From Moniliella sp. 'wahieum' (lineage: Eukaryota), in the NCBI GenBank assembly GCA_003971905.1, contig RSEE01000037.1, forward strand, positions 558,001 through 622,000: DNA of 64,000 nt. Direction: 5' to 3'. Under the pieces are notes generated by a model. It was not told the origin of the DNA, searched no databases, and worked only from the letters and a program-made list of their open reading frames with translations. This document shows positions 715 through 48,018 of the stretch, one piece after another (the first letter of the stretch is position 1; every line of letters starts with the position of its first letter). A program made the translations under genes and the position numbers.

Positions 715-1061
715 GCTGGACTAGGGGCTCGTACCCGCCTTCGCAGCCTCCGTATACCACCGGCAACTCTGACGCGTACCGATCTGCACCCCTCCCCCCC
801 GGGCTCCTTTCTATGGATGATACTGGACAGCCTTCGGTCCTGCAAGTAAATCACACTCCATCCGCAGGGCGGCTGCCTTCCTTGCTGGTCATTGGCCGCG
901 TCTCCGTGCGAGCAAAGCTGGTGTTCCATGTCAATACACCCACTAGATACCAACCTCCTTGCCCTAACCCTCCCTTTGCACTACTGGGCGTATACGAGCT
1001 ACATGAATCCCACGTTTCGTAAACCGAAGGCAAGTCGATTCGTAAACATAAACCAAGGCAC

Positions 1062-2234
1062 TCAGCCGAACATGTTGTTGCCCGCACCGCCTGCACCGCC
1101 TGCACCGCCCATACCACCGAGACCGCCCATACCACCCATCATGGACTGTGCCAGCTGCATCATCTGAGGGTCACGCATCAACTCTTGGATTTGAGAGAAG
1201 CTGGGGACAAAAAAAGATAAGGTGGGTCAGCACTTTCATAAACCTACACAGTCAAAAGCGCAAGGAGAAAAGGAGAAAACGTACTCGGGTGCACCACCGT
1301 TCTGGCCCATACGCTCGGCCATAGAGCGAACGGCAGGGTTGGACATGAGTTGCTGCAACGAACCATTTTGCATCATGTTGGCTGCCATCTGCTGCATTTG
1401 GGGGTTGTTCATCATCTCCGACAGACCGGACATGCCGCCGCCCAGTCCGCCCAGTCCGCCCAGACCAGCAAAAGGGTTGCCCCCGGCGCCGGCACCGGCG
1501 CCAGCAGGAGAAGCACCAGCCGCACGGTTGGCCGGTGCCACGTCGGACGTATCGGCGGCCTGCTTCTTAGCCGACTCGAGACCCGCCTGCATCACCTTGC
1601 TCGTCGGGTCGAGTTCAATGCCCTTCTCGTAGGCTGTCACCGCTTCGGAGTACTTGCCCAGGCTGAACAGCGCATGGCCCATGCGCGAGTAAGCCTTGCT
1701 GAAGCTCGGGTCGAGCTCGAGGGCCTTGTTGGCATCCTCGACGGCACTCTCGTGCGCGCCCGCTTGGCTGTACGCCGCCGCACGGTTGGAGAAGTACACG
1801 GGCGAAGTGGCATCGAGCTTGATGGCCTTGGTGTACGCGGCAATCGCCGCGCCATAGTCCTTGGCCGACATGGCCTTGTTGCCCTCGGCCTTGAGCTTGT
1901 CGGCCGCGGCCTTGTCCTCGGCCGAGGGGGCGGTGCCCTCGGCAGAAGCAGCAGCGGCGGGAGCAGGGGCAGACGCAGACGCCGACGTGGAGGCCGCAGG
2001 CGCCGGAGCAGGCGCAGACGACGACGCGGCCGCGGCAGCTGGGGCCTTGTTCTGGGTCTTGAGGAACACGTTCCACACCGCCTCGAGGCCCGGGGCGGGC
2101 GGGGCGGCGAGCTCAGCGTCGGTGAGAGCGGCGCGCGAGGCAATCAGATCAGCAGCCTGGGCGTACTTGTCGTCGGCGCCGGTGCTCTGGGCACGCAGGT
2201 ACGCAACAATGGCGGTGGGGAGCGAGGTGGACAT
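1062..2234 (-). CDS. SGT2: SGT2/SGTA TPR co-chaperone of the GET pathway; intron ~1201-1284
   Basis: N-terminal dimerisation-like segment (AIVAYL), three TPRs (ADKLKAEGNKAM...YFSNRAAAYS...YSKAYSR-like FSKAYSRMGHA), and an M/Q/N-rich STI1-like tail (MMNNPQMQQMAANMM). Exon 2 ends GNNMFG* at 1062. Confidence 0.9.
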
Positions 2235-2583
2235 GGAGGTGGTGGGGGCAGCAAGGCAGGCCACGTGCAGGGGGGCGGAGACCACCAGGTACGAGGTACT
2301 AGTTACCTCCTGGGCGCGCGGAAGGCAGCCGAAGGCAGCCCCGCCACCCGAACGGCAAACCCGCCTGCTTCCAGCCGCTTCGGCCTCCACGTGGCCGCCC
2401 CCGTGTGCATCTGAAATGTTCACGGCCCTGCGCTTCTGCACGTGCCGTCGGGCTGCCTCTCTAATCCCTTCGCAGCAGATCGGACGATCTGATCCCCACT
2501 GGGCTACCTATCTATGGCGGGCGCCTGGGGTCGTGTATGAGGGCAAATGGCATGCATGTTCCTCGCCGCGTGTCGCAGCGCCG

Positions 2584-3742
2584 CTACTTGGTCCGCTTGT
2601 ACACCTTGTGCAGGAACACGGTGAACACCGCCGGCTTGAGCACCGGCGTGGCCGACGGCGCATCGGGGAACTGCTGGATCAGCCCCGTAATCTTGTCGTA
2701 CGACGCCTGCTCGTACGCCTCAAACTTGGCCTTGACATCCACATTCGCCGCGGTGAACACTGCCTTGACCTTGGCCTCTGCCGCCGCGTCTTTCCGCCCA
2801 TAGTTGGCGTCCAGCACCGCACGCTGCTCGGGCGTGGCGTGGGCCAGGGCGGTGTTGATGACCCAGGAACACTTGTTGTCCTGGATGTCCGTCCCAATCT
2901 TGCCCAGCACTTCGGGCGGAGCGTACGCATCCAAGTAGTCGTCCTGCACCTGGAAGTACTCCCCCAGCGGCAGCAGGATCTCCAGCGCCGCCTTGTACTG
3001 CGCCTCGTCCTGCACCCCAGCCAGGCGCGCGCGAGCGCAACCGGAAGGTAGAACGAGTAGAACGCCGTCTTGTACACCACGATCAGATGGTGCCTAACTC
3101 CGTGTCAGCACACACACCGCCATAGCACAGGAAAAAAACAAAGGGGGAGAGTGGGGCGGGGCGGAGGGGGACGCACTTGTGCAGACTAAACTTGTCCAGG
3201 TCCACATGGTCTTCGGGTGCGGTGAGCAGATCGATGAGCTGGCCCAGTTCCGTTTGGAACGTCACATCATGGAACAGTTCGAGGAAATCAACATAGGCGG
3301 CGTGCTGGCGGAAATGCTTCTTGAGCAAAAAGTAGATCGCACCCTCGAGCATAAACGCATCGTTGATCGCAATCTCGCCGACCTTGTCGACGCGGTACCA
3401 GCACGGCTGGCCGCGCCGCGTGACCGATTTGTCCATCATGTCATCCGCCACGAGGAAGTAGGCCTGGAGCAACTCAATGCACCACCCCAGGATGGCCGCG
3501 GGCGTGTACTCCGCTTCGGGCAGGTCCAGCGCCGACGCACGGCCGGTAATGATCGCATACGTGTCCACCACACTCAGGCCCCGGTTGAGCTTGCCGCCAG
3601 GCGTGTTGTAGTTGAGGTTGTCCTCAAACCAGCTGATCGCCGTCTCGGGGAACCCTTGAGCGCGCACGTACTCGCTCAACTCCTTCACCAGCGTGGGGAA
3701 CACGGCCTCAAACCGCGCACGTACAGCTGCCTTGTCTGCCAT
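2584..3742 (-). CDS. ERG20: Farnesyl diphosphate synthase; intron ~3095-3176, apparent frameshift near 3020
   Basis: Motifs [15 protein letters not shown] (FARM), [34 protein letters not shown] (SARM), [14 protein letters not shown] and C-terminal KVYKRTK. Confidence 0.95.
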
Positions 3743-4264
3743 CTTGTTTGCTACGACCGCGCTTGCGAGGGCGGGGGCGAGAGTGAGGTGGCGATGGGGG
3801 TGGTGGTGGTAGGCCAGGTGGCAGGCGCCACGCGCCGCGCAATGAGCACATCCCGCCACACTGCCCCCTGCCACACCCGCCGCCGATCTTCCACCTTGGC
3901 CGCTACACCTTCCGCTCGCGCTCCGCGCCATTTCCGCCCCCGCCCCCCACCCTTGCGCCTGGGCTGCTGCGGTGGTCACGGGATCTATGTATAGGCCAAC
4001 GCTGTCTCCTTGCTCGTGTCCAGGCCAAGCATCCTACCCTGGCGACGCTGCCGGCGGGGCCATCCGAGTTCATTAATCATTCCCTTCGCGGAACGAGGCA
4101 AGGGCCAAGTGGTCCTCCCAAGGAACTTTGAAATCACCACATCATTGGATTGAAAAGAAGGAAGAGAGTGGGTCAGAGGGTGTCGTAACGGCACGCAGGA
4201 CGAAGAGTCGCCTTGCGGCAGCTTGCACCTAGCGGGATGTTGTGTCTGCTCCCTGATGAGGCAC

Positions 4265-5207
4265 TTAGATCACAATCTTCTTCTTCCTCGACTTCTTTTC
4301 CGAGTCGTCGTGGCTCTGGAACTCGACCTCGGTGCCGTAGTGGTTGGAAACCAGGCGTTCGTCAAAGGAGGTATCGAGACAGTGGACTTTAAAGTTGCGT
4401 CCAATGTCCATCAACTTGTCTCCCATCTTGCCCTCTACCGCCTCCTCCTCCTCCTCCGACAGTGCACGCCGCGTCCAGATCGCAATCCGGTAAAACTGCG
4501 GTCGAGCAGCCAGCAGAACGCCCGTCACCAACGACTCTTCCCCGGCCGCGCGTTCCTGGTCCAGCGATGGCACAGCACGCTCCCCGGGGGGGTAGGGTAC
4601 CTCGAGCGTTTCCCCAATCGCAGCCAACATGGTGTGAAGCCAATACCGGTCCACGTTCGGACCATGTTTCTTATCGCCGCGGCTGAACTGGAAACTCCAC
4701 TTGCCGCCCTTCTCGTTGGCCGGGTCTTCCCACATAGGCTTGATGTTGTCTTTGAACAGGTAGTAGTTGGCCTTTGGAGGAAGCGAGGACGCAGGCACAA
4801 TGTTGTTGTACAGTCTGGCAAGGGGAGCAGAGGGGAAAAGCGTTAGTGGGAGATCGAGGACCGCCACAAGGGCGGAGGGGGGGGAGGCGAGGGACAGACG
4901 AAGGACAAACGACCTACCCCCAAAACTCCTCGACAGTGTCGATATCCACCACACGGTTCAGCCCTTCGCCCCAATTGTTCCTGGTGGACTTGGAGAGGTG
5001 GCCCTGCTGGGTGGGGTTGTCGAACCAGAGCGTCCAGCGCGACGCGAGCGGATGCTTGCCCTCGCTGTCGGGCTCAGCAAAGGCAGGGGCGCCCTCGGCA
5101 CCCTGGGCACCAGTCGCCTGGTCGCTTCCGAGAGGAGCCGACTTGACAGCGGCAAGCGCCTCCTTGGACGCCTGCACCACCGCAGCGGGCGCGTGAATGT
5201 CGGTCAT
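4265..5207 (-). CDS. Translation initiation factor eIF4E; intron ~4815-4917
   Basis: Motifs HPLASRWTLWFD, VEEFW, LYNNI, YYLFKDNIKPMWEDPANEKGGKW, AAIGE and RIAIW carry the conserved Trp pattern of eIF4E. Confidence 0.93.
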
Positions 5208-6974
5208 GGAGCGCGGAAATCAACGGCGGATGGTGGAGCCCAGAGCGAATGGCATCACAGCTTCGACAGAGGTCTGTGCACCCGACCAACCCTAGCCCCC
5301 GCGCTGGGGAATGGGTAGGGGGGGGGTAGGGGTAGGGTTGGTAATTCCACCGGCCCAAGCCAGCGCAACACTGGCCGTGTGCGGCTCCATGATGCGCTCA
5401 CCTCCATTCCGCCGCTTGAAGCGTGAAGCTTGACGTGGGCTCACCGGTGCTCGCGGGAGCGCCGCTCAAATGGGGCAATCCAGCGGGAGGCCTTCGATCC
5501 TCCACTCGAAGCGTACCGTTCATCAAGTTCAGTCATTAATCATTGCTCTCCTGCTCAGGCGGATGCGTTTGGTCACGGCCCAGGCAGGACAGCCAGTCCG
5601 CCAAGCCTGGGCAGGCATAGCAGCACCTGGGAGCCCCCGCGCAGCCCAGCTGCACTATCCGTTTCCGTCCCTCTGCGACACACAGGCATTGCCAGGATGG
5701 CCTTCCGCTCGCCATCACCCAAGTCGTCCCCACCGTGCCCTCATACAGCGCGGCAGGGGAGAGAGCGTCATGCGCATCGCGGGAATGAGGGCGGTGAACC
5801 GTACGGGTACAGGTGGCGCAGGCCTCCCTTCCAGCCGATATCGGTTGCACATCATCCCGCTCTCCACCCCGCCCCTCTCGCCCACATCTCCGCCTTGGCG
5901 CGCCCACCCACGCACACAAGCCATTTTGGTCCATTTTAGCCATCCATCATCTCCGCCACCCAGTACGTGAGTCAGATGCCCAGCAGGCGGTGTGCGAACT
6001 ACTCCGTCGGATTGCTCCCTGACACCCCATGAGTCAGCCACCCAGACCGCACATGATATTCCGGCGAGGGGGGAGGGAAGTGGAGCCCAACTCACGGATA
6101 TATCCTGCAACCTGATCAGAGGCCCTTCTGGCCTGAAGTTTTATGTCGAGGCCACGCATCCCCTGTAGCTCGTGGACGAAAGCTATATGATTGGGCTCCA
6201 CCCGCAACAGGCGCTCCTTGCCCGTTTAACGAACTTGAGTCATCCAGCCTCTTGTCGTGGGGTCTCAAAAATGGAGAGCGCGTCATCGACAGTTCTCGTT
6301 GAAGATTCGTGTGCGGTTTGCCATGCGCCAGATCAAGCATCGCCAATCCATCAAGTGCGCTCTGGCGACCAAACCAAATGTGTTTCCACGGTACATTTGT
6401 TTGTTCTACATCTTCTTTCCCCCTCGTTGTGCGGCCGGCGATCTGAATCGACGGTAGCACACAGAAGAAGTATGAACCGTCAATCCAACGTACACCCATC
6501 GCAGCATCATGTTGTGGATGATCTAGTTCGCAAACAAAACAAGTCTGCTTGAGCGCGCGCACAAAAAGGAATGACCATCCCATCATTTGCGCCATGCATC
6601 ATTACGGATTGTCCAATTTCTGTGGGGCACGCAGCTAGAGTTGCGGATGCCCGTGAGAGCACCGACAGGACCGAGAAGGGTGAGGTCTGAGTGGGAGAGG
6701 GGACTTTTTGTACTGTCCAATTCGACCAGCTCATACTACCTTCTCGGTCCACGAAAGCTATTTTGAGTAGATCCGCTGCAGCTCATGTTCATGAGCGTAC
6801 TGGGATTGTTGTCTCTGCTGGATGCGACTCAGGGCATTACTGTGTACGGTCTGTTTTGATTCGGGAGAGATAGAGGGAAAAGATACCAGTCCCCACGCAA
6901 TGAAGTTATGCTTTCGGGCGACCTACCAGCACATGTGCACATGGACCTAGTCGACTTAGCATCGAGCTCGACTG

Positions 6975-34753: not shown

Positions 34754-34930
34754 TGTCACAGTCGGGGCTAAGGCGAGGGAGACCAGGATCGGACTAGGCC
34801 AAGGGGTGTAGCAATCGTTCGTGGAAAGAAGAAGAACAGAGGACATGGTGCGAAGTGGAAGGAACAGGGAAGGAGCGAGACGCCGGACGAAGAAATTGGA
34901 AATGGGAGCGAGATCAGCCAAACTATGACA
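34754..34930 (-). repeat. 3' LTR of the chromovirus
   Basis: Near-identical to 40342-40521. Confidence 0.95.
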
Positions 34931-34946
34931 TTGCCCCCTTCATACC

Positions 34947-37900
34947 TCATCTCCCGGCGGCGACGAAGGCGAGAGAGGGCGAGTCGGCGGGCATGGGAGA
35001 CAGGCTTATCGGGTAGAGGGCGTGGAAACGAACCACTGGCTCGGTCATGAGACATGTCCGCAGCGGGTACCCACTCCCTCTCGTGGACAGGATAGCCCCG
35101 GAAGTGAACAAAGTACTCAATGCGGCCTCCACGACCCTTGCGGCGAGATCGAGGACATGCTCGACCTCGTGATGACCGCAACCATCATCAGCAAACTCGG
35201 GGAGAGGAGGCGGGGGCTCGATCAAGCGGGCAGGGACCACGTCACCAGGGTGTAGGCTCGCAAGCGGGACACATGGAACACGTCATGGAGGTGTAGGTAG
35301 TCGGGGAGGCGGACCTGGTACGCGGCGCGGCCCACGGCGCGGACAATGGGAAAGGGGCCGAGGTAGCGATAGTCCAGGCCGTCAGAAGGCCGCTGGCTGG
35401 ACACATACCCGTCCCGACGGACCAAAACAGGCTGGCCTGCAGTGAAGGAAGCCGCCTCGGTGCGCTGCTGATCGGCATAATGCTTGTAGCGTTCTTGGGC
35501 CGCGGCGAGCGTGCGGCGGGCCACCGCCTGGGCCGAACGCAAATCCTCCAGATATGACGCAGCATCGGGCACGGGCGAAGTGGAGGGCTCCAACTCCCCC
35601 CGGGGGGAGTAACCATAGGTGAGGACAAAGGGGGACTGGTGGGTGCTCGAGTGGGAGGACGAGTTGTAGGCGAATTCGGCCGTGGGGAGGAGATCGAACC
35701 AGTTGGACTGCTGCTCGTCGAGGTAGCAGCGGAGGTACTGTTCGAGGATCTGGTTGAGTCGCTCAGTCTGGCCGTCCGTCTGGGGGTGGTACGCGGTGCT
35801 GAGGCTCGACTTGATGCCCAAGTCGGCACACAAGGCTTGCCAGAAGTGGCTTGTGAAGGTCGGTCCCCGATCACTCACCAGATCCCGGGGAAGGCCATGG
35901 TAGCGAAAGACCTGGTGTACAAACTGGCGTGCGAGCTGGGGCGCAGTGTCCGTCGTGTGGGCGGGAATGAAGTGACCCATTTTGGTAAAACGATCCACCA
36001 CCACCAGAATCGCGTCGTAACCATTGGATCGGGGAAGCTGGGTAATGTGGTCCATCGTCAAGTGGGTCCACGGGCCTTGGGGAGGGGAAAGGGGCTGAAG
36101 GAGTCCAGCGGGTTGGTGGCGAGGCGCTTTGGTCCGTTGACAGCGGTCGCACGAGCGCACGTAGGCCCACACGTCGGCTGACAGGCGGGGCCACCAATAT
36201 TGAGCGCGGACACGGGCCAACGTCTTGTCGCGCCCTTCATGGCCCGCCAATGCCGAGTCGTGGGCTTGGTGGAGAATGGCAGCGCGGATCGGCGGGTCGC
36301 TGGGGACGTATACCTGGTTTCCGTGCCACAAAAGGCCGTCGCGGACCGTCAAAGCATGGCGGGGTGGGCGTGGAGCCGTAGCAAGGGACCAACGAGGGTC
36401 ACGAGGCAGGAGTTGGCGGATGCGCTGTCGAATCTCGTCGGCAGACACTCGCCCCACCACCGGTGTATCGGGGTCCGCCGCCATGAGCTCGAGGGCGGCG
36501 GCAGAACGTTCGGACATGGGCTCCACCAGTACTTGAGGTGCCGCGTCAGCGGGCCGGGGCCCCTCAGAGGTCGGGACGGCGCGACAACCCGTCAGCCGCA
36601 CCATTCTTCTGCCCGGCACGGTACACCATAGCAAGGCGGTAGGGGGACAGGGTCTGGCGCCATCGGCCCTGGCGGCGGTTCAACAGGCGGGGACGGCGGA
36701 ACGTAGCAATGGCCTCGTGGTCCGTAAGCACTTGGACAGTCTCAACACTTTCGACGTAATGGCGCCACACCTCCACGGCGGCCACGATGGCCAGCACCTC
36801 CTTTTCGGACGTAGTATAGTTCAGCTCGGCCGCGGTGAACTTGCGAGAATGGAAGGCGACCGGCCGCCAACGACCGTGAACATCCTGCTGGGCGAGCACC
36901 GCACCAAGCGCCGCGTCCGACGCGTCAGTCTCGAGGCGAAGGGGGCGAGTGGGATCAAAGTGGCAGAGGAGGTGGGGCGAGGCAAAGACGCGCTTGAGCT
37001 CGGCAAACGCCTCTTCGCAGGCTGGGGTCCAAGAAAACCGCTGGTCCTTGCGTGTCAGGTCGGACAGAGGGGCTGAGATACGGGCAAAAGAACGGACGAA
37101 GTGACGGTAGTAGTTGGCGAAGCCGAGGAAGACTTGGACTTGGCGAGGGGTTCTGGGTGTTGGCCACGACCGAATCGACTCAACCTTGGACGGGTCCATC
37201 CCGATCCCGTCAGGCGAAACGACGTAGCCCAGGTACTCGGTGCGGCGTGTGTGGAACTGACACTTGTCGGGGTTGAGGTAGAACTTGGCCAGCTGCAGAC
37301 GCCGGAGGACCTCGGCAACGTGGCGCTCGTGCTCCATCTCATTAGTCGAAAAGATGAGGATGTCGTCGAGGTATGCCAATACCGAGACGTCGAGGAGGTC
37401 ACGGAGGAGGTCGTTCATCACAGCTTGGAAGGTGGCAGGGGCGTTGCAAAGGCCAAACGGCATAACAAGGGATTCAAAGTGTCCGTACCGAGTGCGGAAG
37501 GCAGTCTTACTCTCGTCGCCTTCTCTCACCCGCAACAAGTTATACGCCCCACGGAGGTCAAGCTTGGTGAAGATGCGGGCCCCCGAGAGGCGGTCCAACG
37601 AGTCACTAATCAGAGGCAGAGCCAACCGGTTCTTGATCGTAACCGAGTTGAGCGCACGATAGTCCACGCACAGGCGCAACGAGCCGTCCTTCTTTTTGAC
37701 AAACAGGACGCCCGCGCCGAAGGGAGACTTGGATGGACGGATGAACCCTGCAGCCAGGTTCTCCTTGAGCCACTGGGACAAGGCCTGCATTTCGCCCGTC
37801 GACAAGGGGTAGAGGCGAGTGAAGGTGGGGGCGGCGCCGGGGACAAGGTCGATGGCGTGATCGGCGGCACGATGGGCGGGGAGCGTCTTAGCCCCTGACT

Positions 37901-38950
37901 TGGAAAAGGCGCTAAGGAAGGAGTGGTAGCGGGGAGGGACTGTCTGGCGGACGTGCTCGAGGTACTCGGGTGTGTCACACTCGTCGGGAAACATTGGCTC
38001 GGGACCGCCAGCGACCGCGACGGACGAGACGGCCAACTCGGGCTCAGGGGGAAATGCGACGTTTACCATGGCCTCGGGTTCCTTGACCACCTCGAGCTCA
38101 AACTGCTCCAGAGAGAGAATGTCAATAGGCGGTCCAGACCGAGAAGGCAAGGAGGGACCCGGGCCAGAGGGCGCCGAGGAGGGGGTGTGGGGAAGAGGCT
38201 GCGTACCGCGCGACGGGGGGTGGGACGAAGTGGGTAAGAGAGGGGAGGAGGGGACGGGCTGGGAGGGAACCGAGGAGGGAAAGGAATCGAGTTGACAGAG
38301 GGGGGCGAGATGGGGTTAGATGGGGAGGTGGACTTGGGCCGGGGCCCGGGCGAGTGCTGGTGCTGGTGCGTAGTCTTGGTCTTGGGCTGGTCTTGGTGCT
38401 GGGGCTGGTCTTGGTGCTTGGTCTGGTCTTGGTGCTTGGGCTGGTCTTGGTGCTTGGGCTGGTCTTGGGGCTTGGGTGGGGGTTGGGGCTGAGGCCGGGG
38501 TACAGTCGTGGAAGGCATATGGTGATCACGGCACTGCACCTTATCAAAGTAAAGGGTGTGCGAGGGGTAGTCGGTGCTGGGGTTGTGAGTCTCAAGGAAA
38601 GGGAGGCCGAGGATGAGGGGGTGATGGAGGGAAGTGAGGAAGAACTCCTCAGTTGAGACATGGGAGCCGATCACGACAGGCGCCTTCACCGCTTGGGTCA
38701 CCAGACCCGAGGAAATGGGACGCCCGTCTACCACCCTGACGACCACAGGCGACGGCAGCGTGCGAGGAACCAGGCCATGCTGGCGGGCAAAACCATGGTC
38801 CATGAAAATACTGTTCGCACCAGAGTCGACCAAGGCGGTGACCGGGATCGGGGAAAAGGGAGACGGAGACGAGGGGCCAGGATGCAGATGGGCGAGTACC
38901 GTGAAAGACCGAGAGGAGGGGGGACAGGGCCCCACTGCCGCCTCAGACAG
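34947..38950 (-). CDS. Pol polyprotein (protease, RT, RNase H, integrase, chromodomain), split over several frames
   Basis: Protease LVDSGA; RT LRLCVDYRALN, MPFGLCNAPATFQ, YLDDILIF; RNase H LETDASD. Integrase H-H-C-C plus MDHI..SDRG..QTDGQTER and YLGPF. Chromodomain EVEHVL..EYFVHFRGYP..EWVP. Confidence 0.93.
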
Positions 38951-40300
38951 AATCAGCGGCGGGGCCGAGGAGGCGGCGGGGAGACCTGGACGTGGGGCAC
39001 TCGGCAATGAGGTGGTCACGGGAACCGCAGTAGAAGCACGCACCTTGAGCGCGGCGCTCGGTGCGCCGTGCCGCCGCTTCGGCGGTGGCGGTGGCTGCGC
39101 TGAGGTCCATGGGCTCGGCTTCGGGCGACGAGGGCCGAAACCAATGATTGCCGCCCGATCCCGGGGAGGTTGCGGTACCATGAGCGCCCAACGATTGCGA
39201 TTGGTCGATGTCAATGGCCGCTGTGCGCAGTTGTTCGAAACTGATCCGTCCAAAGTGAGCCGACTCGCCGCGGGAGGCGATTGCGTCACGCACCCGCGGC
39301 TTCAAGCCGTACAGAAAGTGATAGTAGCGGTCCTCATCCGACGCGTTGGGGTTCCAGCGACGCAGCAGAACCGTGAACGTAGCGGAATAGTCCGCTGCAG
39401 ATCCCGTCTGCCGAAGACGACCAAACTCCTCAAACGCCTTCAGCGCCGGGTTGCGCTCGCCCCACTGCTCCAGGAAAGCTGCGCGAAACGCAGGCCAAGA
39501 CCGGAGGGCGGGTGTGGTGCGCGCCTCCAGGGGAAGGGCCACCTCCGAACCGAACTGCTCGACCCAAGTGAGGGCCTCCCCCTGCAGCAGGCCCATGAAG
39601 CGGTCGATCCATGCCGCCGCGCCCAGATGCGTGAGGGCGACGCGCGCGTAAATCTCGAAGGAGGTGACGACGTGCTGGGCCTGGACCCGGTCCCGAGAGT
39701 TGGGATTCGCACCAGACGACGGGCGGAAACGAACGGGCTCGAACATCTTCGGCTCTTCCGACACCTTGTTCGGGATGGCGGTCAGATCACCATAAGGCCC
39801 AGGGGCGGGAGCGGGGGCGGGGCCCGAGGACACCACGCCAGTTTGAGCCTCCCGTACCGAGGCGGCCAACCGGGCCTCTTCCGCGGCGAGCGCCGCCTCC
39901 TCCCGCCGCTGACGGAGGCGGTGCTCACGGCGCTTCGCCTCTTGCTCATCCTCGAAAGCGCGGCGCTGGTCCTCCTGGGCTGCAAGGTAGGCCTGGTGTT
40001 CCCGGGCCTCCGTCAACAGAAGCTGGCGCATTCTGCGGGCCTCATCGACCCGGCGCTGAGCGGCCTCGAGGTCCAGGCCGGACAGGTCGGAGGCAGGCAA
40101 TGTATACCCCGGGGGCGCGGGCGCAACAGAGCTGCATGGGGGGGTTCAGAGGGGCCAGCCGGGTGGAACCACTCCGGGCCATCGTCGTCGAACGGAGCGT
40201 CAGAGGGGGGTCGGACGGGGGTCGGATCGGGCCGCGCCGCGCGATGGGGTGCGGCGCTAGGGTTACTGGGGTCATGGGGGTTGTCGTGGATCGAGGACAT
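38943..40300 (-). CDS. Gag polyprotein (first ATG at 40300 is in a different frame from the main ORF)
   Basis: Retrotrans_gag-like LRQTGSAADYSATF..FLYGLKPRV, EPMDLS, and zinc knuckle CFYCGSRDHLIAEC. Confidence 0.9.
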
Positions 40301-40341
40301 CTCTGGTCGGGCTCGCCTGTTGACGGTTAGACGAACGATAA

Positions 40342-40521
40342 TGTCACAGTCGGGGCTAAGGCGAGGGAGACCAGGATCGGACTAGGCCAAGGGGTGTAGC
40401 AATCGTTCGTGGGAAGAAGCAAGAACAGAGGACATGGTGCGAAGTGGAAGGAACAGGGAAGGAGCGAGACGCTCGAGACGAAGAAATTGGAAATGGGAGC
40501 GAGATCAGCCAAACTATGACA
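40342..40521 (-). repeat. 5' LTR of the chromovirus
   Basis: Near-identical to 34754-34930. Confidence 0.95.
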
Positions 40522-42796: not shown

Positions 42797-45700
42797 ATGT
42801 CTTTCCCGGCGCCTCGCCCTTGTCCCGCCTGCCGACTCAGCCTCGCCTGGCTCGCCAGCGACGCCCCCGGTTCCCACGTTCGCTCGTCTGCACATCATTT
42901 CAACCCAGATCGAGCTGAGCCCCGACTTGCCCCCCGTCCATGTCACCATTGGCCGTCAGAGTCTGGTACGTGCCCTTCCAATCCCGCCTGACGGCCCCTT
43001 ACCGGCCCTGACCCCCTGCCTGCCTGCTCAGGCGGCTACACCTCTCGGCTGCTCGACATCCTCCCCGACCCTCTTGCCGCCATCCGACACGCTCGCGTCT
43101 GAAGCCTTCTCAAGGGCCAGGTTGCCGCCTCGAATTTTCGTGATCCATTCATTATCGTCCGCAGTGCCCTCGACAAGCTCGACCTGGAGTATTGTCCTCG
43201 TCTTCGCTTGCTTCTGCCGCGAATGCCAGTATTTTGTCTCCGAAACCCACTTGACCCTCGTATCTTCACCGACGTGGCACTCATGTCGCCTTTGATAAAC
43301 AGGGTTGTCTCGCCGCTAGACGTGCTCTGGGTACTTTGCCTCCGTCGCGCCAACCGCTCGTGCCGACTGAAGATATGTTTCCCCCTTCCCTTATCCATCC
43401 TATTGAACTGGTTCCCGTTGGACTCGAGGCAGTGTGTGCCGAATGTATGCATGTGAAGGAGTCGCCAGCTTCACATGCCCGAAAAAGAGGTCACAAGTAC
43501 AGGATGGTCCTCCTGCCGGTTCAACGCTTGACTTTCCATATCAGGCGTGCGATTGTTCCATCTGATAGAATCTCCGGAGCCCAGCGTCACTTGCCTCGCC
43601 TCCCCGCTGCTGTCCAGCAAGGCCAGAATGCTCTTGATTGGCCCTCAGACTCCGTCCAGAATGTGCAAGCTGGAAGCAGAAGCCGCGTCAGGCCCGCGAG
43701 ATGCAGGGCACACTGGTTCGGCTGGCCAGGAAACTGCCATACACGAAGAGGTCTGTAGGGGCCGTGGGGATCGCTCTTCTAGCCCCTTCCGGAATGAGCC
43801 GTCCGCCAACCCTGAGCTGGATTTCACAACGTTGCGCCAGGTCCCGACCCACGCCGCGCGGCCGAATCAACGAGGGCCTTTGAGGAGAGCCATCGAAGTT
43901 GCCCATCAGGTAGCGTCTGTCATGGGGCCACAATTGTCAAGCGCTGATTCTTTGACCCGAATCACAGACGAGGAGCAGCGGATGGGCTCTTTTGCGCGCA
44001 TCTGGCACGTCTCCCGACTCTTTGGTGGCGTGCAATTGATGGCGCTGGCCCAAGCGCGGCAGCTTCCAGGCTTGCGCCCGCAGCGACAACAAGCTGCAGC
44101 CACCTTGGTGACCTGGGCCACTGAGGTATTGGACTATGCTCATCCATCCATTCAACACTTGCTCCCCGCCCCCGGCGCCGAGTCGACCTCTTCCCAGTTT
44201 CATTCAGGCCTCGAGGTCCGAGCTACCACAATGAAGTCGTACAGTGCTTGCCTCGCTGACTGCCTTGTTTTCACCCGCTTCCTTTTGTACGCTCGCGCCT
44301 CATTGGGCACGCAGCAACAGCACCCGCTCGCCACTCTAGCGGCGAGGGTCTTGCCGAGGCATGAGCAGGCCTATGCCCGCGCACTGGCCCGGGAGGGATA
44401 TGAAGAGACTTCGACCCCGCTTGCGGACTTGCTGGAAGATGTCGTCTCCGGTTCGGCGTGGACGCCGCCACCGGACGCCCCTGACGCTACCCGATTGAGT
44501 TCTGACCCGCTCTTTGCTCGCATTGGTATTTGGCTTGATGTGGTAGTGACGCAGCCATGGATGCCCCTCCTGGAGGAGGTTAGCCCCGTGTGGCTCTTTG
44601 CCTTCAGCCAGTGCCTTGCCATTTGGCACCCGCCCCACCGACGGGCCGTTGGCCAATGCACCGTCTCCGGCGGGTCCTCGTGCGGGTGTGGAGGGGATTT
44701 TGGAGGTGCCGGATGGCGACGGCGGCCTCGAGGAGGATGAGTTAGAGGAAGACGAGCTTGACGACGTCGAGGTGCACGGCCCGGCAGAACAAAACCCAGA
44801 GTTCCTGGAAGCACTGGGAGGCGCACAAGCAGAAGCTCAAGCAGAGATACAGGGCGGAGGAGGCTCTTTGGTCTTCCAGGCACCTAAGAAGGTCTCTTCC
44901 ACTATGGCCGGGCTGATGTGGTGTCTTCGCCTTTCTGTCTTTTCCTCACTGCATCATCGTTCAAGGCACCTGGCCACCCTTCCAGACCCGGTACGTGTCC
45001 AGAAAGAATTGATTGACTATCAGAAGAACCACTTGGTCTTGAACTCTGCCGGTGTGCTGGCCAAATTGCAAAGGTATTGCAGTATGCCAGTCGTGTCCGC
45101 GCCTTGCATGGGAATGACATCGGCACGTTTGTTTATCGACCTGACCAGACAACCTTGCCGAATGGCCTAATCATCCCTCACCACCATCTCTGCGTGTTTG
45201 CCAATTCAATCCATGTCCGACTGGAAAAAGATGCCTTCCTCAAGATGATTACTATTGGGCGCACGGTATGCCTCTCTCTTCGACAAGCATCCAGTTTACC
45301 GTCATGATTTGAAAGACTTGTTCAACAATCACGCAGTCGGTTACTCGTTTGCCACTGAGCCTCAAAATCTTCGTCTCGCCCAAGATCGTGACCTCCACCA
45401 CATTCTCGAGTCCATTGTTCATCACGAGCGGCTCGACGATAAGGCTCAGCTCATACTCGAAAAGCTTATCCTCAAGCTAGAGGAGTCCTTCCTGGTCCAG
45501 CTCGCCTTGGCCATTCATGTCTGCTCGGGCGTCTCGCCTTCGGTTGCAGACACGGTGGATTTGCGCTGTATAAATGAATTGTCCAACACCCGCAGCATCT
45601 ACGTTGCTGGCGATGAGGTCTTTCTCGTCATGCGGCGCAGCATGTCGGCCATGGAAGACAGCCCCGAGGCTACCCTCCACTCTACCCGCTTTCCTGATCC

Positions 45701-48018
45701 GACGACAGCCAAGGTGCTTAAGGCCTACTTGCTTCTTGTCCGACCCTACACCGATCTGCTGCGTCACAACCTGGCACCAAACCCAGCAGTGGTGCCTGTT
45801 TGCCAACCCCAACTCTTCGTTACTCTCGCCTGCCCGCTCCAAAAAGCTATCAGCCATGCACATCATCAACGCTCTGCGTGCCAATTGGCCTGACGAGCTC
45901 GTGGCTGGGGTGATGACGTCGACTATCTGGCGCCACTACTCTATGGTCGTATCCAAGGGCCAGCGCACCTACGCTCTCCTTGGCCAACGGCAGGGCCTCG
46001 ATGGATTCGGTCAATCTGGGATAGACCGCGAGGACGACCCCCAGGCTCCCGGCACTTCAGCACAGCACATGCGCAGACAGCGCGACCGCGTCTTGGCTGG
46101 CCAGGCGACCCAAGCAGGCCGTTCATCTAACCCCGACCCCTTGGCCTATGGTCGAAGCGTCGATCAGCTGGGATATCTCGACTTGGCCCCATTGCCTCTT
46201 GCTCGCCTCGTCAGCCGCGACTGGCAAGAGAATGTTCTTCAGCTCACCCTTCCCCCCCTTCCTACCTTTCCCCCGACCCCACTGCCTGACGTCCCAGAGG
46301 CATCTCCCTGGACTCGCCTTGCAGCCGCGCGTGAGGCCGGTCACCGCCTTTTTGGCCTTGGCGGTCTGACAGAGACCCAGCAGGAAGGTCTCGAGCGCGT
46401 ATTCTTTGATCCTGTTGGCGCTGCATCCATGATCAGTTTGGCACCCGGAACAAGCCGCACCGCCTTGTGGCTCATCCCAGCCATCACCGCTGCACCTGGC
46501 ATGGTGCATGTCATCCTCGTACCCCTGCCCAGCATGCTTGCCGCCATCGAGTGCCACTTGCTCCAACACCGGATCAAGTTTGAGTGCTGGCAGCCCCCCC
46601 ATCCTAATGCCACCCACCAAGTTCCTTAGCTAAAACGAGGGACCCGCATTTTGCTCACAACCGTTGGCCACCTCGCCCACAGAAATTTCGCCGACCTTCT
46701 CCGCTCCCTATCCTAGCACAAGCGGCTCGAACGGATTGTACTGGAAGAAGCACACCTCATCCCTCTGCAACGCCACTTGCAAAGCGAGTTGGACAACATT
46801 TCCTTCCTTCCCCCCTTTGTTGCCCATACACGCCTCCTTGCACTTTCAGCCGCGGCGCCGCGCGGGATTGTGGAGGAGCTGGAGTTAATGTTGTCAAAAG
46901 ACCGCCTCTTTGAGTTTTCCCATTTTAACCCGCCAGTCCTTCGGCCCGAGGTGCAGTATGTATACCACGCGCCAGACCCAAGTGGCGTGCATGCCACATT
47001 GTCTCGTCTGTTATCCGTGCACCTTGAAGCCCGAAAAGCTTGGCGCAAAAACCCATGTCAACCACCTGCACCTCGCCGCGCCATCATCATCGCCAACTCG
47101 CGTAGCGATCGCCAACTCGCGTAGCGAAGCAAAGACAATTGCATCCCACCTTGCTGTTCCAGTACGTCTTTCTCACCCGTTCTCAATTCGATTGTTTGCT
47201 AATTCTAATTCATCCCCTGTCTCGTTCGTTTACTACCTTCCCCCTCTTCCCGCACCGTCCCGGGTAGGCGACACCCATGCTGCCGAGGTGGAAGAAGGGG
47301 CGCAGGACCTGGTAAAATTTGTGCACGGTGACGAAGTGGTGCTTGTGGGAACCAACGAGCTTTCCGTATGTGTGGACGTGCCCGACTGCGACAAGGTCAT
47401 TTGGGTGGGTGTCCCATTTACTGGTCTCGATTTGATCCAGGCGGCCGCCCTGGCAGCCAGAGGCGCAGGCGAACGAGGCCAACTGATCATTCTCGCCCCC
47501 AAGACCAGGTGCGCCACGAGCTACAGCATCCAAGTACGAATGAAAGCCGAATCTATGTGGGCAACGTAGCGCATTGGCTGCACACCTCCCATTGTCTCAT
47601 GGAGGCGGTGACCACCTGCCTCTATGCGTGTCCCATGCGGTGTGAAAACGTGGATGGTGCCCAACCATGTACTGCGTGCCAGCTCCAAGGCCCGTGTTGC
47701 CCTCTACCTACCCTAGCGCCAGCGACGCTTGACAGCCCTTCGCCCCCTCCACAGCCTAGGCTTCCGCAGCCCCAACGCCAGATCCAGCCCGAGGCTAACA
47801 CAGCTGCCGCCCAGGTAGATGCGACGCCTTCCCTACCCGCTCGCCTTGATCCGCCCACCTCCACCGAGCAGCCGAGGCGGCGCAAACGTCCAGGGCCCTC
47901 ATCCCCCAGAGCCGAATGGGTCACACGGAAACGCACAATGGAGCGGCAGCAGTCAGACGATCCGTTCACCCCATCTTTCTCCCCAAGTTCATCGTCCGAG
48001 GGGTCCCATGGTCGATGA
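42797..48018 (+). pseudogene. Telomere-linked-helicase-like gene: DUF3505-like Cys/His N-terminus, recombinase-like middle, degenerate RecQ-like helicase and Zn-binding tail; start uncertain
   Basis: N-terminal FCRECQY and CAECMH; middle LAIHVCSG..RSIYV..TRFP..YLLLVRPY, WRHY, QAGRS..AYG. Helicase motifs in order: APGTSRT, VILVPL, RIVLEEAH, LLALSAAAP, RPEVQY, AIIIANSR, VLVGTNELSVCVDVPD, IQAAALAAR. Tail CLM..C..PCTAC. Confidence 0.72.

Follow-up and report, generated by a model that had tools for sequence, protein, structure and literature searches.

The window analysed here, a 64,000-nucleotide stretch of Moniliella sp. 'wahieum' DNA (contig RSEE01000037.1), carries at about 45.3-46.2 kb what is very probably the mutated TLH-domain remnant of a dead TLH-type gene, the domain being one that has the fold of tyrosine recombinases and type IB topoisomerases and whose relatives keep an ordered Arg-Lys-Arg-His-Tyr set. 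The surrounding gene reads as a pseudogene of ~5 kb on the + strand, at about 42.8-48.0 kb. Because three of the five residues have been lost, frameshifts and stop codons interrupt the gene and the Walker A Lys has gone, the window copy is judged to be inactive today, and its value is that of a pointer to the family. The domain itself was delimited as follows.

45303..46158, + strand: decayed tyrosine-recombinase-like ('TLH') domain, matched by phmmer to P0001 and by tblastn to P0006, P0008, P0002, P0139 and P0144.

A preliminary description of the window had placed a possible tyrosine-recombinase-like domain here, and all of the motifs that it quoted were recovered in their places on the + strand, split over two reading frames. 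Frame 0 holds LAIHVCSGVSPSVAD (45507-45551), RSIYV (45591-45605), TRFPDP (45684-45701) and YLLLVRPY (45726-45749), and frame 1 holds IWRHY (45925-45939), QAGRS (46111-46125) and LAYGRS (46141-46158). The frame 0 half ends with QPQLFVT at 45824 and the frame 1 half begins with SPARSKK at 45826. As the alignment to relatives runs unbroken over this junction (QPQLFVT + SPARSKK versus QPLLFVDPNSKRM) and leaves no room for an intron, position 45825 is best read as a true 1-base frameshift.

When the translation of 45249-45893 was used as a phmmer query against 1.84 billion representatives, 16 proteins were matched at E <= 0.001, the best of them being P0001 (E 1.5e-14), and the resemblance of the stretch to its relatives is more than chance. 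A word-indexed search of longer proteins with the same translation returned zero matches, and one with P0001 residues 700-1080 returned nothing but P0001 itself.

At the five positions conserved in the family the window copy has Ser, Met, Arg, Arg and Tyr, so that two of the five residues are retained: the second Arg (45931-45933) and the Tyr (46147-46149). The box-I Arg position (45540-45542) is Ser (SPSVAD versus APRGQE in relatives), the Lys position (45642-45644) is Met (RRSMSAM versus QRSKTSL), and the His position (46120-46122) is Arg (QAGRS versus QSGHS). The earlier observation that the box-I Arg and the Gly-His His were lost from this copy was right, and the Lys is gone as well. The Arg at the His position may be a variant of the basidiomycete lineage rather than a product of decay, since it is common to the Tilletia horrida proteins P0008 and P0143.

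The assignment to the TLH family follows from the arrangement of parts in relatives. Two TLH preprints (10.1101/2024.02.27.582403; 10.1101/2022.03.07.483234) describe these proteins as carrying two C2H2 fingers, RecQ motifs and, immediately before the helicase, a ~250-residue family-specific 'TLH domain'. P0001, P0006, P0008, P0139 and P0144 all carry, ahead of their helicase, a domain homologous to 45303-46158, and P0006 and P0144 show the TLH layout including the C2H2 fingers. According to citations of the work, the TLH domain was reportedly defined by Rehmeyer et al. in 2009.

A search with P0139 gave one locus, the metagenome contig L001 (1-11221). It holds an open frame of 1352 residues with C2H2 fingers, AARGTE, HSKT, QWRQL, ANHS, SWYA and DEAD, followed by Helicase_C; the helicase runs over two overlapping frames (763-4821 and 4755-6854), a split that an intron or a frameshift may explain. 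This relative retains all five motif residues, and its gene points toward the (TTAGGG)n array that forms the end of the contig at 11139-11216 (12 matches versus 0 expected), 4.3 kb downstream of the gene. The window matches the L001 protein at 45486-45755 (E 1.7e-6) and 46111-46884 (E 6e-4). Because P0006 and the L001 gene have the TLH layout and the window matches both, the window gene was classed, on the comparison of translated sequences, as the relic of a TLH-type gene, equated by position and layout rather than by alignment to a named TLH protein. In the portions available of 10.1101/2024.02.27.582403 and of a further TLH paper, TLH genes are reported from chromosome ends in many fungi and in a choanoflagellate, with copy numbers that can reach dozens per genome.

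The fold of the domain was addressed with AlphaFold models of two relatives that are ~26% identical to each other. P0011, a stand-alone member of 382 residues, was modelled (AF2) with A2, a 44-sequence alignment of relatives with identities of 20-56% that also served for the residue counts; the model had a predicted local distance difference test score (pLDDT) of 77.6, exceeding 90 for most of residues 1-230, and a predicted template modelling score (pTM) of 0.74. The domain of P0001 (339 residues), which is helicase-fused and belongs to the nearest relative of the window gene, was modelled with A3 (pLDDT 79.9, pTM 0.81). Both models were aligned structurally to 48,161 PDB representative chains, a comparison in which a Z below 8 can reflect a common arrangement.

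By title, the first 20 rows for the P0011 model were tyrosine recombinases or type IB topoisomerases without exception. The best was the archaeal Xer 4a8e (Z 10.7, root-mean-square deviation (rmsd) 3.4, 156 residues aligned), and others were XerH (9.5), Cre (9.0), an integron integrase (8.4), XerD (7.8), topoisomerase IB (7.4) and Flp (5.8). The P0001 model gave the same two classes throughout rows 1-21, with Z >= 8 in 11 chains; 4a8e was again the best (Z 11.1, rmsd 3.5, 154 residues aligned), and others were XerA (9.6), XerH (9.2), IntI (9.0), XerD (9.0 and 8.8), topoisomerase IB (8.8) and Cre (8.1). A language-model look-up with the P0001 domain put it nearest to the Phage_integrase, NDC10_II, Integrase_2 and protelomerase clusters (0.82-0.86), matches that serve as leads only. 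The models support the view that the domain homologous to the flagged stretch folds as a tyrosine-recombinase / topoisomerase IB catalytic domain.

The residues expected of such a domain are conserved in order among the relatives. In A2, the Arg of GGQxPRxxE is present in 44/44 sequences and the Glu of the same motif in 40/44; the Lys of HxKxR is present in all 44 and the second Arg (YRQ) in 43. The Gly and His of the Gly-His pair are kept in 41/44 and 40/44, and the Tyr (TYG) in 39/44. In A3, the helicase-linked proteins P0001, P0006 and P0139, together with P0002, retain all five residues; P0002 is predicted to lack a helicase and may be a truncated gene model. In the P0011 model, Arg95 opens a short helix, Lys129 comes after the second strand of a three-stranded sheet and Arg218 opens a helix, a placement that fits a recombinase.

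A number of results weigh against this reading of the domain or its extension to the window. The His of the HxxR box is found once among the 44 sequences of A2, the position being Gln in 21 and Arg in 17; the relatives keep Arg, Lys, Arg, His and Tyr in order, but the HxxR His is absent across the family. The seemingly intact Tilletia proteins P0008 and P0143 carry Arg at the Gly-His His position (QSNRT versus QSGHS), and catalysis is therefore not assured.

Sequence profiles gave no support. Neither Phage_integrase (PF00589) nor DUF3435 was among the 25 of 32 Pfam families listed for the 44 members (E <= 1), the remaining 7 families each matching at most one member. PHROGs, searched with 42 members, returned no integrase family. 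No recombinase was found in the PDB by sequence, with each half of the domain as query, or by profile, with A1; the top matches were a proteasome subunit, a centrin and a surface anchor protein (E 0.07-1.1). Foldseek against the PDB placed recombinases (XerH, Cre, XerA) at the top, but with best E-values of 5.7e-3 for P0011 and 0.13 for the P0001 domain these were not significant, and neither model had a match at E <= 0.001. The proposal of a recombinase fold is supported by the models of two relatives, with Z of 10.7 and 11.1, while neither the sequence profiles nor the Foldseek E-values were significant. The loop that bears the Tyr was modelled with low confidence (pLDDT below 50 at P0011 261-274 and at 289-305 of the P0001 part), and the sequences behind the fold evidence are those of relatives with 26-34% identity to the window translation, not the broken sequence of the window itself. 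A search for a TTAGGG array in the 64 kb of the window gave 0 matches, and no chromosome end is seen in the window.

Three rivals to the main reading were weighed. That the motif pattern arose by chance in a domain unrelated to recombinases would accord with the non-significant profile and Foldseek E-values, but is very improbable: for two proteins as distant as P0011 and P0001, the top of the list of 48,161 chains (20-21 rows, Z up to 11.1) is made up solely of recombinases and type IB topoisomerases, and the conserved residues stand in the right order on the right structural elements. It is rather unlikely that the recombinase fold serves as a DNA-binding module alone, tethering the helicase to subtelomeric DNA and leaving that DNA uncut, in the manner of the kinetochore protein Ndc10 or the phage regulators MrpR/SroF. 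Ndc10, MrpR and SroF are indeed among the structural matches (Z 4.3-6.0), and the family-wide absence of the HxxR His, the Arg of the Tilletia proteins and the lack of a profile match to the catalytic integrase families of Pfam and PHROGs would all be in keeping with such a role. However, binding alone rarely maintains residues to the extent seen for the two Arg, the Lys and the Tyr (44/44 and 43/44, 44/44, and 39/44) at identities of 20-56%, and the proteins that score highest (Z 9-11, well over Ndc10) are active enzymes, namely Xer, Cre and integrases. We lean modestly towards the intact members being catalytic.

The preliminary description had gone further, taking the ~5 kb gene to be the engine of a recombinase-plus-helicase mobile element. 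On this reading the gene would encode the transposase of a discrete element that has defined ends and mobilises itself, inserting and excising in the way of Cryptons. Such a bounded element is unlikely. The family is large, with 306 proteins matched in a profile search at E <= 1e-5, single protein clusters reach 28 and 32 contigs (P0022 and P0042), a helicase-less sister group exists, and the window copy lies away from any telomere repeat and beside a retrotransposon, a position that a copy which had transposed or been relocated might take. Against this, no direct or inverted repeats flank the pseudogene in 33-53 kb other than the long terminal repeats (LTRs) of the retrotransposon and chance 25-mers, and the window holds no second copy of the pseudogene; the claim of an element with ends was not borne out within the window. 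Nor is this a new kind of element, the layout of the gene being that of the published TLH family, whose genes, in the parts of the sources at hand (10.1101/2024.02.27.582403; 10.1101/2022.03.07.483234; and the further TLH paper), lie in duplicated subtelomeric blocks and not in bounded insertions. A different form of mobility can be put forward tentatively, namely that intact TLH proteins are active site-specific recombinase-helicases that make the gene a self-propagating unit, copied or moved between chromosome ends by cutting, unwinding and rejoining DNA, or that heal or resolve those ends. The helicase-less proteins of Fusarium and Colletotrichum that join OrsD to the recombinase-like domain would in that case be a sister group of undescribed Crypton-like transposases.

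The family, read as having a recombinase / topoisomerase IB fold, was compared with described systems. With the TLH genes it shares the order of parts in relatives (C2H2 fingers, the ~250-residue domain, RecQ) and, in the L001 relative, a position adjacent to the telomere, whereas the window copy is dead and has no telomere repeat in its 64 kb. With the Xer, Cre and lambda-type enzymes (XerA, XerH, XerD, Cre, IntI) it shares the catalytic fold (Z 8-11, rmsd 2.8-4.8, 139-156 residues aligned) and the ordered Arg, Lys, Arg, His and Tyr; unlike them, it shows no detectable sequence-profile similarity, has Gln or Arg in place of the HxxR His, and is a eukaryotic domain fused to C2H2 fingers and a RecQ helicase, with no core-binding domain identified.

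The type IB topoisomerases (bacterial, poxviral and nuclear) are of the same fold class (Z 7.4 and 8.8 to 3m4a, 6.6 and 7.3 to the variola enzyme), but their Z values are below those of Xer, and the family lacks the topoisomerase N-terminal domain and is helicase-fused. The pentad of topoisomerase IB resembles the Arg-Lys-Arg-His-Tyr set of the family, without the extra His of the recombinases. As the residue set without the HxxR His is of this kind, a nicking and relaxing role is possible by analogy. Like Cryptons and Starship captains (DUF3435), the family is fungal and multi-copy and has a tyrosine-recombinase-type domain. It differs from them in the fused helicase and in that the window yielded no element ends; DUF3435 and GCR1_C, the latter being the DNA-binding domain of CryptonF, were not among the 25 of 32 Pfam families listed, the sequences of the family not being set directly against Cryptons or captains. 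The catalytically dead Ndc10 (CBF3) and MrpR/SroF have the same fold, but the TLH-type family retains catalytic-type residues, which Ndc10 is not known to have.

A mechanism for the intact relatives can be proposed from the fold and from the presence of catalytic-type residues beside a RecQ helicase. The N-terminal C2H2/OrsD fingers would bind DNA, and the recombinase-like domain would cleave one strand through its Tyr, forming a 3'-phosphotyrosine link, and rejoin it; the phosphate would be activated by the two Arg, the Lys and the His. Unwinding or branch migration of the joint would fall to the RecQ-type helicase fused to the domain, and the outcome would be that the gene unit, or the chromosome end bearing it, recombines with other ends, or that the unit propagates.

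If the TLH domain is a tyrosine-recombinase-type enzyme joined to a RecQ helicase, the spread of these gene units among chromosome ends would become directly testable, as would the role of TLH genes upon telomere failure. The family would also represent a new and very divergent eukaryotic branch of the tyrosine recombinase / topoisomerase IB superfamily, one missed by current profile libraries. The full-text literature covered, which does not extend to the paper defining the TLH domain, to figures or to bioRxiv supplements, yielded no paper that calls the domain a recombinase, and the word 'recombinase' was absent from the TLH literature checked for it and from a fungal telomere review. In the accessible text, the domain is called a family-specific motif of unknown function (10.1101/2024.02.27.582403; 10.1101/2022.03.07.483234), and the F. 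oxysporum preprint (10.1101/2024.02.27.582403) states that the function of TLH proteins is undetermined.

The family extends well beyond the helicase-linked proteins. Helicase domains follow the matched region in 3 of the 16 phmmer relatives (P0001, P0006 and P0008), P0006 having the order OrsD (DUF3505), matched domain, DEAD and Helicase_C, and P0008 being a Tilletia horrida protein named 'DNA 3'-5' helicase'. The other 13 have no helicase match, and one of these, P0015, carries OrsD. Among the 120 listed of the 306 profile matches, OrsD was found in 51 and a helicase family in none. The names supplied with the profile matches include Fusarium, Colletotrichum, Dactylonectria and Corynascus, and two of the matches bear the NCBI label 'ATP-dependent DNA helicase tlh1'.

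The helicase-less sister group (among P0003-P0133) consists of proteins of 700-1200 residues with the recombinase-like domain and OrsD/DUF3505, from Fusarium, Colletotrichum and other ascomycetes. OrsD lies before the domain in P0073, P0125 and P0129 and after it in P0114, P0122 and P0015. On its domain composition, this group is a candidate for an undescribed Crypton-like transposase family.

The remainder of the window gene was reconstructed by tblastn against P0001, the closest relative found, which follows the window in collinear order over 43913-47157 through frames 2, 0, 2, 0 and 1 (E-values along the window 1.6e-10, 3.1e-19, 3.3e-4 and 2.0e-46). The reading path includes at least five frame changes, of which some early ones could be introns instead. 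The features recognised outside the recombinase-like domain are given below.

42821..42847, + strand: candidate relic of the first N-terminal C2H2 finger (CPACRLSLA), collinear with P0001 19-27 (CPACHVHLA); a weak match, E 2.2 versus a 3.2 kb target.
43276..43569, + strand: relic of the second C2H2 finger region (VCAEC..H..H from 43432), tblastn to P0001 97-199; weak, E 0.092 versus a 3.2 kb target, and collinear with the stronger downstream matches.
43913..44632, + strand: conserved N-terminal region in frame 2, tblastn to P0001 342-570, E 1.6e-10.
44874..45302, + strand: middle region upstream of the recombinase-like domain, with frames 0 and 2 alternating, tblastn to P0001 616-743.
46324..47566, + strand: decayed RecQ-like superfamily 2 helicase, tblastn to P0001 934-1373, E 2.0e-46, with 3 stops.

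The DUF3505-like N-terminus of the preliminary description was not recovered: no OrsD or C2H2 Pfam match was obtained in the window upstream of 43.9 kb, where the weak collinear relics of the two fingers are all that was seen. In the middle region, the frame 3 match to P0001 616-743 has 2 stops and the frame 2 match covers 45047-45262 (E 3.3e-4). The location of the domain upstream of a RecQ-like helicase, in turn, holds, as indicated by the match to the helicase part of P0001. The in-frame stops of the helicase lie at 46627-46629, 46714-46716 and 47122-47124. Its Walker A motif is LAPGTSRT (46438-46461), in which the Lys is replaced by Arg (GTSRT versus GAGKT in P0001), and a DEAH-like box, VLEEAH, is found at 46738-46755. 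A Helicase_C relic at about 47303-47461 in frame 2 (Pfam E 0.0011, 19.7 bits, under the 23.5-bit cut-off) was the sole Pfam match among the open reading frame (ORF) pieces searched. A Cys-rich stretch, CENVDGAQPCTAC, lies 3' of the helicase relic at 47641-47679 in frame 1 and may be what is left of a zinc-binding segment at the C-terminus, comparable to the Cys-rich tail of P0006.

The first 34 kb of the window (1-34 kb) hold ordinary genes with TPR, polyprenyl synthetase, eIF4E, GATA and SET domains. They are followed on the - strand by an apparently intact Ty3/Gypsy LTR retrotransposon (34754-40521) with ORFs for gag, aspartyl protease, reverse transcriptase/RNase H and integrase, which lies about 2.3 kb upstream of the pseudogene. 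Its 177-base LTRs (34754-34930 and 40342-40521) are 93-100% identical over three matched segments and have TG...CA termini. An 18-base tandem repeat, present as 8 overlapping copies of a 54-nt unit, lies at 38333-38506 in the gag/protease region of the retrotransposon.

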